Below, in pieces: positions 15,649 through 21,832 of a DNA stretch of 25,301 bases. Made by a program: the position numbers and the translations under genes. The stretch's first letter is position 1, and every line of letters begins with the position of its first letter. Source of the stretch: a virus; UHGV virus genome UHGV-0254345, one strand, 5' to 3'. Below the pieces are notes generated by a model that did no database searches, was not told where the DNA came from, and was given only the letters and a program-made list of their open reading frames with translations.

Positions 15649-15927
15649 ATGACAACCATTTTTATTAAACCTGCGCCGGGATGCCTGATTCGCGATCCCG
15701 ACACGATGACTCCGCTCTCACAGGACGGTGAAGAGAAACCCTTCACCCCGTTCTGGTGCCGCCGTCTTAATGATGGCGACGTCATTGTGGTGGATAAAAC
15801 GGCGGAGCCTGCCCCGGCTGCCACAACTGCTAATACCGGCGAGGCTGCAAAACCAGCGGGAGCGGTAGCAGAAAAAACTGCGGCGGTGGCTGAAAAAACC
15901 GCAGCATCAGATAAGGGGACGTCCTGA
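15649..15927 (+). CDS. small protein, Mu gp38-like
   Basis: GAGGA SD; 92 aa with short internal repeat AEKTAAVAEKTAA; precedes sheath gene. Confidence 0.55.
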   Translation: MTTIFIKPAPGCLIRDPDTMTPLSQDGEEKPFTPFWCRRLNDGDVIVVDKTAEPAPAATTANTGEAAKPAGAVAEKTAAVAEKTAASDKGTS

Positions 15928-17429
15928 TGATTAACTTTGATTATATCGGCGATAACAATCGCATTCCGCTGGTACAGATTGAAATCAATAATTCAATGGC
16001 CGTGACCGGCACTCCACCACAGCGTCAGGCGGTACTGTTGTTTGGTCAGGCTGCAATGAAAGACACTACCATTCAGGGGCGCGGTCAGCTTGATGTACCA
16101 GTACGTATTACCCGAGCTTCACAAGCAAGAGAACTCTGGGGGCGAGGTTCCATGATTGCACTGATGGTAGAGGAATTTATCGCCATTAACCCTGACACAG
16201 AGTTATATGCCATTGCACAGGGGGCTGGAACAGGTCAGTCCAGGGCATGCGTGATGAATATCATTGGAACAGCATTGGCAGACGGGGTATTAAGTGTTTA
16301 CATCGGCGGTCGCCGTTACCTCCTGCCCGTCAGTAAGGGGAAAAAAGGTAAAGAGCTTGTGGAAGAGCTGGTTAAGGTCATTAACGCTGACACTGATGCG
16401 CCATTCACTGCTATCGCAGCTGAAGTCAGTGGTGATAATGCTGAAGGACTTAAAGGCAGCATGGGGGTTAACGCCCGCTTTATCGGTGAATGCTCAGCTC
16501 ATGATTTACGGGTGAACTATTATGACGGTGAAACTACACCGGCCGGTCTTACGCTGGAGCTCGTCGCGCCAACACAGAAGGCAACAAACCCCGATATCAC
16601 CCGTAGCGTCTCAGGGATGGGGAATCGTCAGTACAACTACATCGTCATGCCCTATAAGGATGCGGCAAATCTCAAAATTCTGGCGGATGAACTGCTGAAA
16701 CGCTGGGGACCGGTAAAAATGTCGGACGGTATGGTCTGGATGGCGCATACCGGCACCTTCGGTACGGCAACCAGTTTTGGTGAATCCCGTAATGACTTCC
16801 TGTTTACCTGCACTTCTATTCCTAAAGCACCAGAGCCGGATTATGTCTGGGCGGCCTCCATTTGTGCGGTCTGTGCGCCCTCCCTGTCAACGGATCCGGC
16901 CCGACCATTACAGACACTGGCGCTGCCTGCCCGTATGGCACCTGAAGCACCGGCTCGTCTGACGCGGGAAGAACGAAACAGCCTGCTTTATACCGGCATG
17001 TCCACGGTGACCGTCGCGGCCGCTGATGTGGTGCAGATTGAACGTCAGGTGACGATGTACCGTCAGAATGCATACGGCGAAAGCGATCCCAGCTATCTGG
17101 ATGTGGAAACCATCTACACCCTGTCATATCTGCGTTATTCTCTGCGCACCTTTATCACGCAGCGTTTCCCGCGCCACAAACTGGCCGATAACGGTACTCC
17201 CGTCCGGCCCGGTCAGAATATCGTGACGCCGGAGATTATGACGCTCCAGCTGATTGCACTGGGGGAAGAATGGGTGGATCTGGGACTGGTCGAAAATCTG
17301 GACACCTTTAAAAAGAATCTGCTCGTGGAGCGCAACACAAAAGACCGTAACCGTCTGGATGTGATGTGTACACCGGATCTGGTTAACCAGTTCCGCTTCA
17401 TGGCCGCGCAGATCCGTTTCATTTTGTGA
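15927..17429 (+). CDS. tail sheath protein (Mu L-like)
   Basis: 500 aa; directly upstream of tube gene; contractile-tail synteny. Confidence 0.8.
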   Translation: MINFDYIGDNNRIPLVQIEINNSMAVTGTPPQRQAVLLFGQAAMKDTTIQGRGQLDVPVRITRASQARELWGRGSMIALMVEEFIAINPDTELYAIAQGAGTGQSRACVMNIIGTALADGVLSVYIGGRRYLLPVSKGKKGKELVEELVKVINADTDAPFTAIAAEVSGDNAEGLKGSMGVNARFIGECSAHDLRVNYYDGETTPAGLTLELVAPTQKATNPDITRSVSGMGNRQYNYIVMPYKDAANLKILADELLKRWGPVKMSDGMVWMAHTGTFGTATSFGESRNDFLFTCTSIPKAPEPDYVWAASICAVCAPSLSTDPARPLQTLALPARMAPEAPARLTREERNSLLYTGMSTVTVAAADVVQIERQVTMYRQNAYGESDPSYLDVETIYTLSYLRYSLRTFITQRFPRHKLADNGTPVRPGQNIVTPEIMTLQLIALGEEWVDLGLVENLDTFKKNLLVERNTKDRNRLDVMCTPDLVNQFRFMAAQIRFIL

Positions 17430-17437
17430 GGTAAGGC

Positions 17438-17803
17438 ATGAGCGGAAAACAGTATCAGGGCACGGCCACCATCCGTGTGAACGGACAGGAGTACGCCACC
17501 CTTGAGGGAGCCACGTTCTCCCCGTCCGGCTTTGAGCGTGAAGTGGTGAAAGGCGCGAAAGTCTACGGCTATCGCGAGAAACCCCGTGAGGCGACGCTGG
17601 ACTGTAAATTTCCGGCTGGCGGAGAAGGTTCACCGGCTGCCGATGAAATCAACACCTGGACTGCGGTCACGATTGAGTTCGTGGCCGATACCGGTGAAGT
17701 CCACATGATGACGAAGGCCTGGAGCAGTGAACCGGCCTCGCTTGACGGTGGCGGGGAGATCTCCGTGAAGTTCGCCAGCGCCTCCAGTACCCGTGTTCAG
17801 TGA
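17438..17803 (+). CDS. tail tube protein (Mu M-like)
   Basis: GAGGTAAGG SD; 121 aa; follows sheath. Confidence 0.8.
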   Translation: MSGKQYQGTATIRVNGQEYATLEGATFSPSGFEREVVKGAKVYGYREKPREATLDCKFPAGGEGSPAADEINTWTAVTIEFVADTGEVHMMTKAWSSEPASLDGGGEISVKFASASSTRVQ

Positions 17804-17817
17804 TCAGGAAAAATAAA

Positions 17818-18294
17818 ATGACCACACGTAAGAAAAAAACGGCAGTTTCCGAGGCAGCCGTGATGGAGGCAATCCGGGAAGCACTTGAGGGGGCTGATCC
17901 ACGCACTGCCGGGCTGACAGAGCAACTGGCAAAGGGATATGTGGATCTGCTTGATGGTCTGCCGTTTGGTGAGACCCGTGAATATCGTGTCACGTTCCGG
18001 GAACTGACAGCGAAAGACAGTATTGACGCAGAAGCAGAAGCCGAGCGCGTGGTGGAGACAAACAATGGCCCGATGCTGATAGCGTCTCCGTCGTTACGCG
18101 GTGTTGCACTGCTGCGCCGTCAGATTGCCGCAGTGGGAGACATTGAAGGTCCGTTGTCACCCCGTCAGATTGGACAGTTAAGCGAGCGCGATCTCTCCCG
18201 CCTGATGGCAGCGGTCAGCCTGCTGGATACCGCGCTTGCCGGAAAGCTGGCAGCTGACCGGGGGCGATCAGGCGCAGTGTCGGGATCAGATTGA
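17818..18294 (+). CDS. tail assembly chaperone (Mu gp41-like)
   Basis: ATG 17818 with AGGAAAAA upstream (ORF track's earlier start at 17800 is GTG inside the tube stop); located between tube and tape measure genes. Confidence 0.6.
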   Translation: MTTRKKKTAVSEAAVMEAIREALEGADPRTAGLTEQLAKGYVDLLDGLPFGETREYRVTFRELTAKDSIDAEAEAERVVETNNGPMLIASPSLRGVALLRRQIAAVGDIEGPLSPRQIGQLSERDLSRLMAAVSLLDTALAGKLAADRGRSGAVSGSD

Positions 18295-18418
18295 AGAAGC
18301 GGCAATTATCCTAGGGATGGTGACAAAAAGCGGTCCGGAATGGGCGCTTAACCTCCCCCTGTCGCAACTTTACCGGCACTGCCGACAGACAGAAAAAATC
18401 ATCAGAACGAAGCAGTAA
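18206..18418 (+). CDS. alternate-frame extension of tail chaperone (putative programmed frameshift product)
   Basis: Second frame open from 18206 to a stop at 18416-18418, 2 nt before the tape-measure start, overlapping the chaperone 3' end; the expected chaperone-extension arrangement, but frame relation is +1/-2. Confidence 0.35.
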   Translation, partial: WQRSACWIPRLPESWQLTGGDQAQCRDQIEEAAIILGMVTKSGPEWALNLPLSQLYRHCRQTEKIIRTKQ

Positions 18419-18420
18419 GT

Positions 18421-20496
18421 ATGGCCCGAAATCTCAGAGCATCTCTGATAGTTGATTTGCTCGGCAATATCTCAGCCAAATCCCGCCAGTGGTCACAGGA
18501 GCTGGGGGCATTCTCACGCTCCGGCCAGGCGGGGCTGGGTGGCCTGGGAAATGCTGCCCGCCGTGCCGGGCAGGAAACAGATGTACTCGGAAGCAGGATG
18601 CAGCGCACGCTGGCCGGGGTGCGGGGCAGTATCCGCCATGTCACTTCTGATTTTGACCGTCTTCAGGGCAGTATTACCGGCACCATCGGGCGGATCAGCA
18701 ATCTTTACGGAATGCTGGCCGGTGGTGCTGCTGTATATGGCTTTAACCGGGGATTTATTCGCCCGGCAGCGGAGATGGAAACCTATATGATTCGCCTGAA
18801 CTCCCTTTACAAAGGGGATCGGGCGAAAACTGATGATGTCCGCAGGTGGGCAATACAGAATGCGAAGGAAACCACCTGGGGGCTGGCTGGCGTCATGCAG
18901 GAATATACGTCCAGTCTGGGCTTTGGTATGAGTGACAGGGAGGCCCGAAATTTTGTCACCATGCTTCAGGATCAGGGTGCCGTGGGCGGCTGGTCACTGT
19001 CCGATGCACAGGGGGCATCCCTGCAACTGAAACAGATGTATGCAAGAGGCAGTATTCAGGCGGCGGATGCAAATATTCTTGCCACCTACGGCATTAATGC
19101 CTACCGCGTGCTGGCTGATCGTCTGGGTGTGGACCAGAAAGTGGTCAGAAAACTTGGTGAAAAAGGGCTGCTTGGGCCGGACAGTATTCGCCTGTTATTT
19201 CAGACGCTGGCGGAACAGGCCAGGGGAGCACAAAAGGACGCAATGAATTCCTGGAGTGGCCTGACGGCCATGATGGGTGACGTCTGGGACCAGTTTGCCC
19301 GGGATGTGATGGACAGTGGGCCATTTGAAAAACTGAAGGGTAATCTCAGGGGATTTCTTTCATGGGTTGACAGTGCCAAATCTGATGGCAGTTACCATTC
19401 CCTGGCGGAAAGCACGGCATCAGCCATGAACCAGGGCTTTGAGTATGCCCGTGATGCAGTGACAGGGTTTTATCAGGCGATCAGAAAGGTACGCGACACG
19501 CTTCAGGCTCTGCGGGATGCGGGCTATGGTGATGCGCTGGATCGCATTGGTCAGGGGGCACAGACCGCCGCGAAATACCTGCTGTACATGTATCTCGCCA
19601 CCCGTGCCCTGAAAATGGCGCGAGCTGTCGGAACGGGGATTATACGTCCGGGTGCTGCATTGCTGGGATACGGATTATCAGCGGCGGCCTTCCTGACCTC
19701 ACCTTTCCGGCGCTCTCCTCCGGCCGGAACACCACCAGGCACATCTCAGGGACGAGGGCAACGTTTTATAAACTTTCTTACCGGGGTAAATCCGGCAGCC
19801 GTTCAGCCAGTACTTGTAACAAACTGGCCCACAGGAGGACTGTCCGGCACCGGCGCGACCGATACATCCTCAGGCGGACGTCAGGGGCGGGGCCGCAGGA
19901 AACGCGGACCGGGGCGCGGAAGACCGGTCACGCCCCCCCTGCCACCGTCCCCAGTGCCACCGTCTCCCTCTTCTGGTGGGGCAGGGTTCTGGGGGCGCAT
20001 GATGGGGCGCGCCGGTGGGTTACTTTCGTCTGTCGGTAGCCGCATGGGGCTGGGGCGTTTCTCCGGCTTTTTCCGCAGTGCCGGTGGACTGGCCGGCCGG
20101 CTGGGTGGAGGTGCCCTGTGGGCTGGCGCGATGGCAGCCCCGGTTCTGCTGGATGGCAGCGCCAGTGCCACAGACAAGGGAGAAGCGGTCGGCTCTCTTG
20201 CAGGCAGTATTGCCGGTGGTGCGCTGGGGGCGGCAGCCGGACCTGTGGGGATTGCCATTGGTTCTACGGTGGGCAGCTATCTCGGTAACTATCTGGGGGG
20301 ATGGCTGACTGAAGCCTGGCAGAAATTACGGGGCAGTGATGATGAAAGCAGTGGACAGGCGGTACAAAAAGCCTCTGCCCGTGTGGAGCTGGTTGCCCCG
20401 GAAGGGTGGCAGGCTCGCAGTATTGATATTGATGACACGTCCGGTCACGGACTGGATGTGAATGTCTGGAACGGAGGGAATTATGGCCTCTGGTGA
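18421..20496 (+). CDS. tail tape measure protein
   Basis: 691 aa; Gly/Pro/Arg-rich low-complexity C-terminal third; position after chaperone. Confidence 0.8.
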   Translation: MARNLRASLIVDLLGNISAKSRQWSQELGAFSRSGQAGLGGLGNAARRAGQETDVLGSRMQRTLAGVRGSIRHVTSDFDRLQGSITGTIGRISNLYGMLAGGAAVYGFNRGFIRPAAEMETYMIRLNSLYKGDRAKTDDVRRWAIQNAKETTWGLAGVMQEYTSSLGFGMSDREARNFVTMLQDQGAVGGWSLSDAQGASLQLKQMYARGSIQAADANILATYGINAYRVLADRLGVDQKVVRKLGEKGLLGPDSIRLLFQTLAEQARGAQKDAMNSWSGLTAMMGDVWDQFARDVMDSGPFEKLKGNLRGFLSWVDSAKSDGSYHSLAESTASAMNQGFEYARDAVTGFYQAIRKVRDTLQALRDAGYGDALDRIGQGAQTAAKYLLYMYLATRALKMARAVGTGIIRPGAALLGYGLSAAAFLTSPFRRSPPAGTPPGTSQGRGQRFINFLTGVNPAAVQPVLVTNWPTGGLSGTGATDTSSGGRQGRGRRKRGPGRGRPVTPPLPPSPVPPSPSSGGAGFWGRMMGRAGGLLSSVGSRMGLGRFSGFFRSAGGLAGRLGGGALWAGAMAAPVLLDGSASATDKGEAVGSLAGSIAGGALGAAAGPVGIAIGSTVGSYLGNYLGGWLTEAWQKLRGSDDESSGQAVQKASARVELVAPEGWQARSIDIDDTSGHGLDVNVWNGGNYGLW

Positions 20497-21832
20497 CGGT
20501 CGTGGTGCGTTCCGTGGTGTGCCGTTCCTCGTCTGGCGTGAGCAGCGCGAACGTGGCGGGCGAAACATTGTCCGTCGGGAGTATCCGTTACGGGAAACCG
20601 GTGGTGCAGACGATCTGGGACCTAAACTGGCTGAATTTACGTTCAGTGTACTTGTGATGGGGGATGATGTTCAGACACAGCGAAATCGTCTGCGTGATGC
20701 CCTTCGTGCTCCCGGTGCCGGGGAGCTGCTTCACCCGGATTACGGCACGTTAAATGTGCTGATAAACAGCTTTGAAAGTCGTTATAACGCTGCTGAACAG
20801 GGCGTGGTTGAGTTCACCATTAATGTCACGCCGGTAAGTGATGATACCGCACCTGCTGTCACACAGGACACGGCCGCCATTCTGGAGCAGAAGAGTACCA
20901 CCGCGCTCGGGAAGGTTTTTGAAACCCTGGAAGCGGGCTGGACGGTGATTTCTGACGGAATGCACGATGTCCAGGCAATGACCGAAACCATCAGCGATAA
21001 GGTGTCCGCCCTGGAAAATGCCGTTTCCGGCATGGGGATTGTACAGGATATCAGTGCCTTTACTGCCACGTTCACGGCGCTGAAAGGGAATGCCACGGCA
21101 TTACTGACAGCACCTTCCCGCATGGCCTCATCTTTTGCGGGGCTTTTCAGTGCCCTGATCACCCTGCCATCGCTGCCGTCACTGTCTTCAGGAGGCCTGA
21201 ATACCCGGCCCGGAGGCAGTATCGGTCGGACGACATCCGCCGTCTCTCAGGGAATGCCGCAACTGTACAGGACATTATCTTCCCTGCGTTACGTGCTGGA
21301 TGAGCAGGATAATCCGCAGACTCTCATCGGTCTGACACCGGCAGCACAAAAGAATATTCGTCTGATACGGGCGGTAATGCAGAGTGCTGCCGTGGTGGCC
21401 CAGGCACAGACCGTGGGAAAACTGCTGGATCAGGTTCTCAGTCAGGAAACCCTGCCGGACAGTGACGCAGCCCACCGTACCTGGCCTGTCTGGCTGGAAA
21501 GTTCAGTTGATCTTCAGCGCATTAACCGTGACTTAAGCGAAGCGCTCGAACGGCAGGTGATGACACTGTCCGGGCAGGGGTATACCGCCACGGCGCTGAC
21601 GCTTCGTGATGCCAGACTGGCACTGACAGAGGATCTGAATACACGGGGAGTTCAGCTACCCGGTGCAACAGTAGTGACTGTACGTACCACCGAGCCTGCA
21701 CTGGTGACCCTGTACCGTGCCACCGGGAACAGTACCGGCTGGCAACGTTTTGTGCGCCGTAACGGTATTGTTGATCCGCTGTTCATTCCCGGAGGCCATT
21801 CAGTGGAGGTGATTAGTGAGCAGCAGGGTTGA
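20483..21832 (+). CDS. DNA circularization protein N-like tail protein
   Basis: ATG 20483 preceded by GGAGGG (preferred over the ORF-track start at 20462); about 449 aa; Mu gene order TMP-N-P. Confidence 0.7.
   Translation: MASGDGRGAFRGVPFLVWREQRERGGRNIVRREYPLRETGGADDLGPKLAEFTFSVLVMGDDVQTQRNRLRDALRAPGAGELLHPDYGTLNVLINSFESRYNAAEQGVVEFTINVTPVSDDTAPAVTQDTAAILEQKSTTALGKVFETLEAGWTVISDGMHDVQAMTETISDKVSALENAVSGMGIVQDISAFTATFTALKGNATALLTAPSRMASSFAGLFSALITLPSLPSLSSGGLNTRPGGSIGRTTSAVSQGMPQLYRTLSSLRYVLDEQDNPQTLIGLTPAAQKNIRLIRAVMQSAAVVAQAQTVGKLLDQVLSQETLPDSDAAHRTWPVWLESSVDLQRINRDLSEALERQVMTLSGQGYTATALTLRDARLALTEDLNTRGVQLPGATVVTVRTTEPALVTLYRATGNSTGWQRFVRRNGIVDPLFIPGGHSVEVISEQQG

Follow-up and report, generated by a model that had tools for sequence, protein, structure and literature searches.

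The -2 shift in the tail-chaperone gene of bacteriophage Mu was reportedly shown experimentally by Xu, Hendrix and Duda in 2004 (Mol Cell 16:11). At this locus, the GenBank record of Mu (AF083977) has one CDS for the plain chaperone (Mu_41) and another that is a two-piece join, Mu_56, with the annotation 'verified -2 translational frameshift in PMID 15469818; tail assembly chaperone frameshift product'. According to Mu_56, the canonical Mu shift, whose direction had been left uncertain in the initial annotation of the DNA analysed here, is thus -2. The review by Atkins et al. presents Mu as the classic natural -2 case (PMC5009743), another article describes the site as tandem -2 slippage on GG GGG CGA, with an argument based on the A-site tRNA-Arg ICG (PMC3458567), and two more papers also name Mu as the first natural case of -2 frameshifting. 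The junction of the Mu fusion product differs between databases (slash at the junction), being ...QERGR/EWLR... in GenBank UIW09302.1 and ...QERGG/EWLR... in UniProt P0DJY4, and these records imply tandem and P-site-only slippage, respectively. The mechanism, the motif and their occurrence in Mu-type phages are already known (2004; curated in GenBank and UniProt).

Other tail chaperone frameshifts go in another direction: that of phage lambda is a -1 shift, said to have been described by Levin, Hendrix and Casjens in 1993, and P2 also shifts -1. According to the review cited above (PMC5009743, on Xu et al. 2013, 2014), the tape measure protein of lambda is coated by gpG and by the G portion of gpGT, and the T portion binds the major tail protein, whose polymerisation it initiates; lambda depends on the ~30:1 ratio that the frameshift sets, and both proteins are absent from the virion. 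By analogy, the Mu-type pair is assumed to do likewise for the tube of a contractile tail. Arterivirus nsp2TF (Fang et al. 2012) and Trichomonas vaginalis virus 1 provide other natural -2 ribosomal frameshifts (PMC5009743).

The stretch of DNA analysed here (UHGV virus genome UHGV-0254345; 25,301 nucleotides), referred to below as the window, is a Mu-like prophage of E. coli. Several E. coli chromosomes, that of FORC_069 among them, match it at 100% identity, and its copies in O157 strains are 97.5% identical. A megablast/blastn search of a phage collection returned two Stx phages carrying a 'Bacteriophage Mu-like phage' insert that is 86% identical to the window; no DNA similarity to Mu itself was detected in that collection by megablast/blastn, and Mu was found at the protein level only. 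The chaperone is 49% identical to Mu gp41 over residues 33-154 (E 2e-26, tblastn), and the gene order sheath, tube, chaperone, tape measure is common to the window and Mu. The features of the locus, all on the + strand, are as follows.

15927..17429, + strand: tail sheath gene (RefSeq annotation; same order in Mu)
17438..17803, + strand: tail tube gene, directly upstream of the chaperone gene (Pfam Tail_tube PF10618, E 8.1e-31; RefSeq)
17818..18294, + strand: zero-frame tail assembly chaperone CDS, homologue of Mu gp41, 158 aa (ORF list, RefSeq, Pfam, PHROG)
18206..18418, + strand: whole stop-free stretch of the +1/-2 frame (ORF list and sequence)
18260..18267, + strand: putative slip site GG GGG CGA (sequence; Mu and relatives; published Mu site)
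18266..18418, + strand: predicted post-shift extension, 50 codons (translation, identity to Mu, PHROG 12783, third-position bias)
18421..20496, + strand: tape measure protein gene, 691 aa (Pfam TMP_3 PF20155, E 1.9e-18; RefSeq 'tape measure protein')

In both the ORF table and the raw sequence, the chaperone CDS starts with ATG at 17818 and stops with TGA at 18292-18294, and the RefSeq annotation of the FORC_069 chromosome has the same CDS (WP_000213225.1, 'phage tail assembly protein'). Its product matches Pfam Gp41_Mu PF23746 (E 5.1e-31, 107 bits, cut-off 27) and PHROG 508 'tail assembly chaperone' (E 1.2e-46), with a weak match to Pfam Phage_TAC_7 PF10109 (E 1.8e-5, 25.1 bits, cut-off 25). 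The codons of the chaperone start at positions equal to 1 mod 3 and those of the second frame at 2 mod 3, so that the second frame is reached by a shift of +1 or -2. This frame opens at 18206, after a TGA at 18203-18205, overlaps the chaperone frame for 89 nt (18206-18294), and ends with TAA at 18416-18418, leaving 2 nt between its stop and the tape-measure ATG at 18421. The apparent 126-nt 'gap' between the chaperone and tape measure genes is exactly bridged by it. The -1 frame is open for 57 nt only (18258-18314), closing 106 nt short of the tape-measure start. The initial annotation had proposed a second frame with these limits, lying 2 nt from the tape measure and reached by +1 or -2 and not by -1; every coordinate is confirmed by the ORF table and the sequence, and the direction is borne out by the codon phase, by the early closure of the -1 frame and by the -2 annotation of Mu. 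The same annotation saw here a departure from the usual -1 slip, which holds in so far as the site is unlike the lambda-type -1 sites, but for Mu-type phages such a shift is the known rule.

Within the window's genes, 14 of 282 stop-free stretches in the +1 frame reach at least 70 codons, which corresponds to about the 95th percentile, and GGGGGCGA is present in 2 copies in the window against 1.55 expected. Each taken alone, the open frame and GGGGGCGA are within chance expectation; their significance comes from the exact bridging position, the codon phase, and the conservation in relatives.

Read from GAT 18266 to CAG 18413-18415, followed by TAA, the extension has the product DQAQCRDQIEEAAIILGMVTKSGPEWALNLPLSQLYRHCRQTEKIIRTKQ. 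The predicted fusion, join(17818..18267,18266..18418), is 200 aa long and comprises chaperone residues 1-150 and a 50-residue C-terminal domain; for a tandem -2 slip its sequence would be ...LAADRGR followed by DQAQCRDQIEEAAIILGMVTKSGPEWALNLPLSQLYRHCRQTEKIIRTKQ. The extension is identical to that of Mu at 23 of 42 positions (55%; E 5e-20, BLASTP), and this homology, together with the bridging of the gap in relatives, upholds the initial assignment of the second frame as the frameshift extension of the chaperone. It also matches PHROG 12783 (E 6.9e-39), a 54-residue family with no function assigned, which evidently collects such extensions from genomes in which they were entered as small ORFs in their own right. 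When the closest relatives (80-87% identity) are compared past the zero-frame stop, 20 columns vary, 14 of them at third codon positions of the extension frame, and this bias argues that the extension is translated as coding sequence.

The locus is thus closest to that of Mu, with which it shares a homologous chaperone, the gene order, the GG GGG CGA octamer and its phase, and an extension in the same frame that has 50 post-shift residues and ends just before the tape measure. The two differ in that the window chaperone has a longer, Lys-rich N-terminus (158 aa in total, compared to 144 aa for Mu), in the distance from the G run to the zero-frame stop (27 nt in the window, 21 in Mu), and in the distance from the extension stop to the tape-measure ATG (2 nt in the window, 14 in Mu). 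The frameshift product is annotated in Mu but not for the window prophage.

The five G's at 18260-18264 lie in the context CC GGGGG CGA, with GAC CGG GGG CGA TCA as the zero-frame codons, of which CGG occupies 18259-61, GGG 18262-64 and CGA 18265-67. The longer zero-frame reading is GCA GCT GAC CGG GGG CGA TCA in the window and ACA CAA GAA CGG GGG CGA GTG in Mu, the slip octamer and its codon phase being identical in the two. The G run, put forward initially as a candidate slip site, therefore coincides with the published Mu octamer in the same phase. The window prophage is one more copy with an identical signal. CGA is rare in the prophage (28 of 483 Arg codons, 5.8%; 4.4 per 1000 codons) and is decoded inefficiently via I:A wobble, and both properties fit a role as the pause and re-pairing codon. 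The site does not have the lambda-type X XXY YYZ layout, as a -1 shift would put the A-site tRNA-Arg on GCG with no pairing, nor does it have the RF2-type +1 layout, the A-site codon being CGA and not a stop. No AGGAGG-type element was found upstream of the site (GCAGCTGACC).

Compared to the other described systems, the locus resembles lambda G/GT in its presumed function, with two chaperone products that have a common N-terminus and a fixed ratio and are encoded just upstream of the tape measure gene. However, the lambda heptamer G GGA AAG, of the X XXY YYZ type, gives a -1 slip, whereas the extension of the window lies in the +1/-2 frame, and no sequence homology was detected between lambda G/GT and the window chaperone. 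P2 gpE and gpE+E' are related through the Pfam family Phage_TAC_7 ('E, or 41 or 14') and likewise combine a contractile tail with a chaperone frameshift before the tape measure, but the slip motif and direction of P2 are unlike those of the window. The -2 sites of arteriviruses and Trichomonas vaginalis virus 1 differ in belonging to unrelated genes of eukaryotic RNA viruses, with slip sites G GUU UUU and CC CUU UUU, and the arterivirus site is in addition stimulated by a trans-acting protein.

The comparison with relatives covered nine annotated Mu-like phages, 25 viral contigs, and 34 loci from a one-genome-per-species bacterial collection. In all nine annotated phages, whose chaperone identities go as low as 33%, the 'gap' of 107-144 nt ahead of the tape measure is spanned by the +1/-2 frame, the -1 frame ends too early by 17 to 118 nt, and [C/A]GG GGG CGA is present in the same phase. 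The full GG GGG CGA octamer and its phase are common to the window, Mu, D108, SfMu, and six more distant Mu-like phages. G GGG CGA is found in phase in all 46 loci with an intact chaperone 3' end (39 distinct 47-mers), although these loci are phylogenetically linked and the counts overstate the number of independent observations. Conservation of the alternate-frame ORF in related phages was also checked, and the same +1/-2 frame is kept, bridging the gap to the tape-measure gene, in every one of these intact loci. They span more than 20 genera of Gammaproteobacteria, the motif being present in Escherichia, Shigella, Klebsiella, Raoultella, Pluralibacter, Pantoea, Sodalis, Xenorhabdus, Pasteurella and Haemophilus, and further in Canicola, Aeromonas, Plesiomonas, Vibrio, Photobacterium, Enterovibrio, Shewanella, Marinomonas, Marinobacter and Alteromonadaceae. 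Across the 39 distinct sequences the seven motif bases never vary, whereas the information content of the positions around them is 0.02-1.5 bits.

Seven of these 39 have A or C in place of the first of the five G's (AAG, GAG, GCG or TCG GGG CGA). AAG GGG CGA occurs in viral contigs 80-84% identical to the window (L022/L023/L025, about 1947), GCG or TCG GGG CGA in Sodalis and Pantoea (L038/L039, about 1890), and GAG GGG CGA TAG in Xenorhabdus (L044/L049, 1842/1169), where a 13-bp hairpin starts 5 nt past the CGA codon. In these four-G variants, P-site re-pairing after a -2 shift would be 2 of 3. One Enterobacteriaceae MAG (L037, 1860) has seven G's, in CAG GGG GGG CGA. The overlap of the two frames shrinks to 20-35 nt around the motif in the relatives from Shewanella and in several from Vibrio, with an extension-frame stop 12 nt before the first post-shift codon and a zero-frame stop one codon past CGA, and this short overlap confines the shift to the motif.

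The loci outside the intact set are one truncated at a contig end (L050), two fragments (L027, L068), and one in which the two frames are fused (L036). The last, from Erwinia tracheiphila ICMP 5845 (1840-1998), has one G fewer (GAA CGG GGC GAG TGG), and its chaperone and extension form a single frame (...PERGEWLQCRNEIEQ...), so that the 'frameshift' form would be its sole product. Either the prophage is decaying and the mutation is real, or the long-read assembly has a homopolymer error at this point. Mu-like in-frame fusions of 187 aa (P0003, P0008) were also found in Logan assemblies of public sequencing runs.

Folding of 63-93 nt downstream of the site gave no sign of a stable RNA structure in the window (z -0.32 for 63 nt, +1.29 for 93 nt, and +0.08) or in Mu (z -0.22 and +0.03). 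A notable hairpin was obtained for Xenorhabdus only (z -2.3), with a weak one in Vibrio martha (z -1.35), and there is no family-wide stimulatory RNA element. Rfam had no match to 17700-18600 with E up to 1. Scanning of 17400-18800 for promoters and terminators returned no promoter-like site and one terminator-like match, inside the tape-measure gene and at chance level.

Given the observed anatomy of the locus, the homology of both of its parts to Mu, and the conservation of motif, phase and frame, we hypothesize with high confidence that the region is a Mu-type programmed -2 ribosomal frameshift of the tail assembly chaperone gene. The majority of ribosomes would read 17818-18294 to give the 158-aa chaperone, while a minority would shift two bases back at GG GGG CGA, with tRNA-Gly on the P-site GGG and the poorly decoded CGA in the A site. 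The tRNA-Gly would then re-pair perfectly with GGG 18260-62, and the tRNA-Arg (anticodon ICG) would re-pair at two of three positions with GGC 18263-65. Translation would continue from GAT 18266 to TAA 18416-18418, giving the 200-aa fusion. By analogy with lambda gpG/gpGT, the chaperone part common to both products may bind the tape measure protein and the extension may recruit the tail tube subunit, with the frameshift efficiency setting the ratio of the two products. The -2 shift at the Mu site is taken from the literature; the same -2 event in the window prophage, the identity of the residue at the junction, and the role of each domain are what this precedent would predict, and the direction (-2 or +1) and efficiency in the window prophage are likewise estimated from homology to Mu.

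The direction is also addressed by the comparative data. All intact loci have a G directly before the GGG codon, as the third position of seven codons (CGG, AGG, AAG, GCG, TCG, GAG and GGG, coding for Arg, Lys, Ala, Ser, Glu or Gly). Re-pairing of tRNA-Gly on xGG needs this preceding G, whereas a +1 slip from GGG to GGC does not, which favours -2; a +1 slip from the codon before GGG is incompatible with the data, because that codon varies. The comparative data thus appear to lean toward -2, as does the literature. Less orthodox versions of the event, in which the -2 shift involves the P site only, or in which -2 and +1 shifts are mixed, driven by the eight-base motif and the slow CGA alone with no RNA structure, are unlikely. 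If either version were true, the relatives with weakened sites, namely those with AAG, GAG, GCG or TCG GGG CGA and Xenorhabdus with its CGA directly before a stop and its 13-bp hairpin, would tune the efficiency in different ways.

A purely +1 ribosomal shift at the same place appears improbable. The tRNA-Gly would move from GGG 18262-64 to GGC 18263-65 while the slow CGA left the A site empty; the ribosome would arrive in the same frame, and the product would be a 199-aa fusion with one residue fewer (...ADRG/DQAQ...). The G GGG CGA site is compatible with such an event, since a rare or slow A-site codon beside a P-site codon that overlaps a near-cognate is, as a matter of general knowledge, the classic +1 layout, and CGA is rare. 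However, a verified -2 shift is on record for the homologous site of Mu, the +1 shift does not require the invariant G that follows the first two bases of seven different upstream codons, and on GGC the wobble position of the tRNA-Gly would be mismatched (C:C or U:C), compared to a perfect GGG at the -2 position in 32 of the 39 distinct sequences. Natural in-frame fusions that imitate a +1 product do exist in the Erwinia locus and the two Logan assemblies, but these are changes at the DNA level.

The same one-G-deleted assemblies, which show that changes in run length arise at the DNA or sequencing level, bear on transcriptional slippage of the kind seen in IS elements, potyvirus P3N-PIPO and type III secretion genes, in which the RNA polymerase would stutter on the five G's and mRNAs with one G fewer or two more would give the fusion. 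The homopolymer run is at exactly the right place for this. Runs on which such slippage is productive are longer, usually with 8-9 or more A or T, whereas the run is only 5 G in the window, 4-5 G in nearly all relatives, and 7 in one (L037). The invariant CGA after the run and the fixed codon phase would also be left unexplained, and the literature classes the Mu event as ribosomal. We thus regard slippage of the polymerase as very improbable, and favour the programmed -2 ribosomal shift.

Equally small is the probability of an independent gene with its own start and no frameshift, which would begin either at TTG 18236, giving a 60-aa ORF, or at ATG 18317. On ~360 contigs the 60-aa ORF has been called a 'hypothetical protein', D108 gene 41.5 is a similar case, and some relatives have an ATG 6 nt past the motif with the G run at Shine-Dalgarno distance. 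However, Mu, SfMu and the Marinomonas locus L057 have no ATG, GTG or TTG in the first 60 nt past the shift point, and the window has no start codon between TTG 18236 and ATG 18317. The TTG at 18236 has no upstream Shine-Dalgarno sequence, a start at ATG 18317 would lose 17 conserved residues, several relatives have the extension-frame stop 12 nt before the first post-shift codon, and the promoter search gave no candidate. As the start codons of the extension frame are not conserved, independent initiation of the extension was rejected. The notion that the open frame and G run are functionless and 18295-18420 is plain intergenic spacer has next to no probability and is refuted by the comparative data, since, although each feature alone is within the chance expectation of the window, relatives in more than 20 genera have kept the frame, the motif with its phase, and the protein sequence, and the substitution pattern is of the coding type.

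The Mu-type -2 shift has consequences mainly for annotation, the one new point being the missing fusion product. RefSeq/PGAP calls the 158-aa chaperone only and leaves 18295-18420 as an apparent gap. In an exact-sequence look-up, the 158-aa chaperone was found on at least 1000 contigs and the 60-aa alternate-frame ORF (TTG 18236, to 18418) on the ~360 public contigs mentioned above, while the 200-aa fusion, in either version, was absent from a collection of ~15 billion proteins. The 60-aa ORF and D108 gene 41.5 are most likely the mis-annotated frameshift extension. A literature search for the literal GGGGGCGA returned unrelated primer or sequence matches only. For Gammaproteobacteria, the annotation rule would be to look close to the 3' end of the chaperone gene for an in-phase G GGG CGA from which ~50 codons of the +1/-2 frame lead up to the tape-measure start. 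The natural site variants could be used for studying bacterial -2 frameshifting; knowledge of phage tail assembly or of recoding is unchanged by the finding.

Two further observations were made in the genes on either side. The second GGGGGCGA of the window lies at 16138-16145 in the sheath gene (15927-17429), in the same codon phase (CTC TGG GGG CGA GGT), where a -2 slip would reach a stop after three codons (GAG GTT CCA TGA). It is probably incidental, because it is not kept in the Mu sheath, which has AAFGQGSM at the equivalent place, and because the copy number of the motif is near chance. Downstream, the tape-measure ORF (18421-20496) runs 35 nt into the next ORF (20462-21832, 456 aa; overlap 20462-20496), and its C-terminal third is very Gly/Pro/Ser-rich (e.g. 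RPVTPPLPPSPVPPSPSSGG), with a weak glycine-zipper match.
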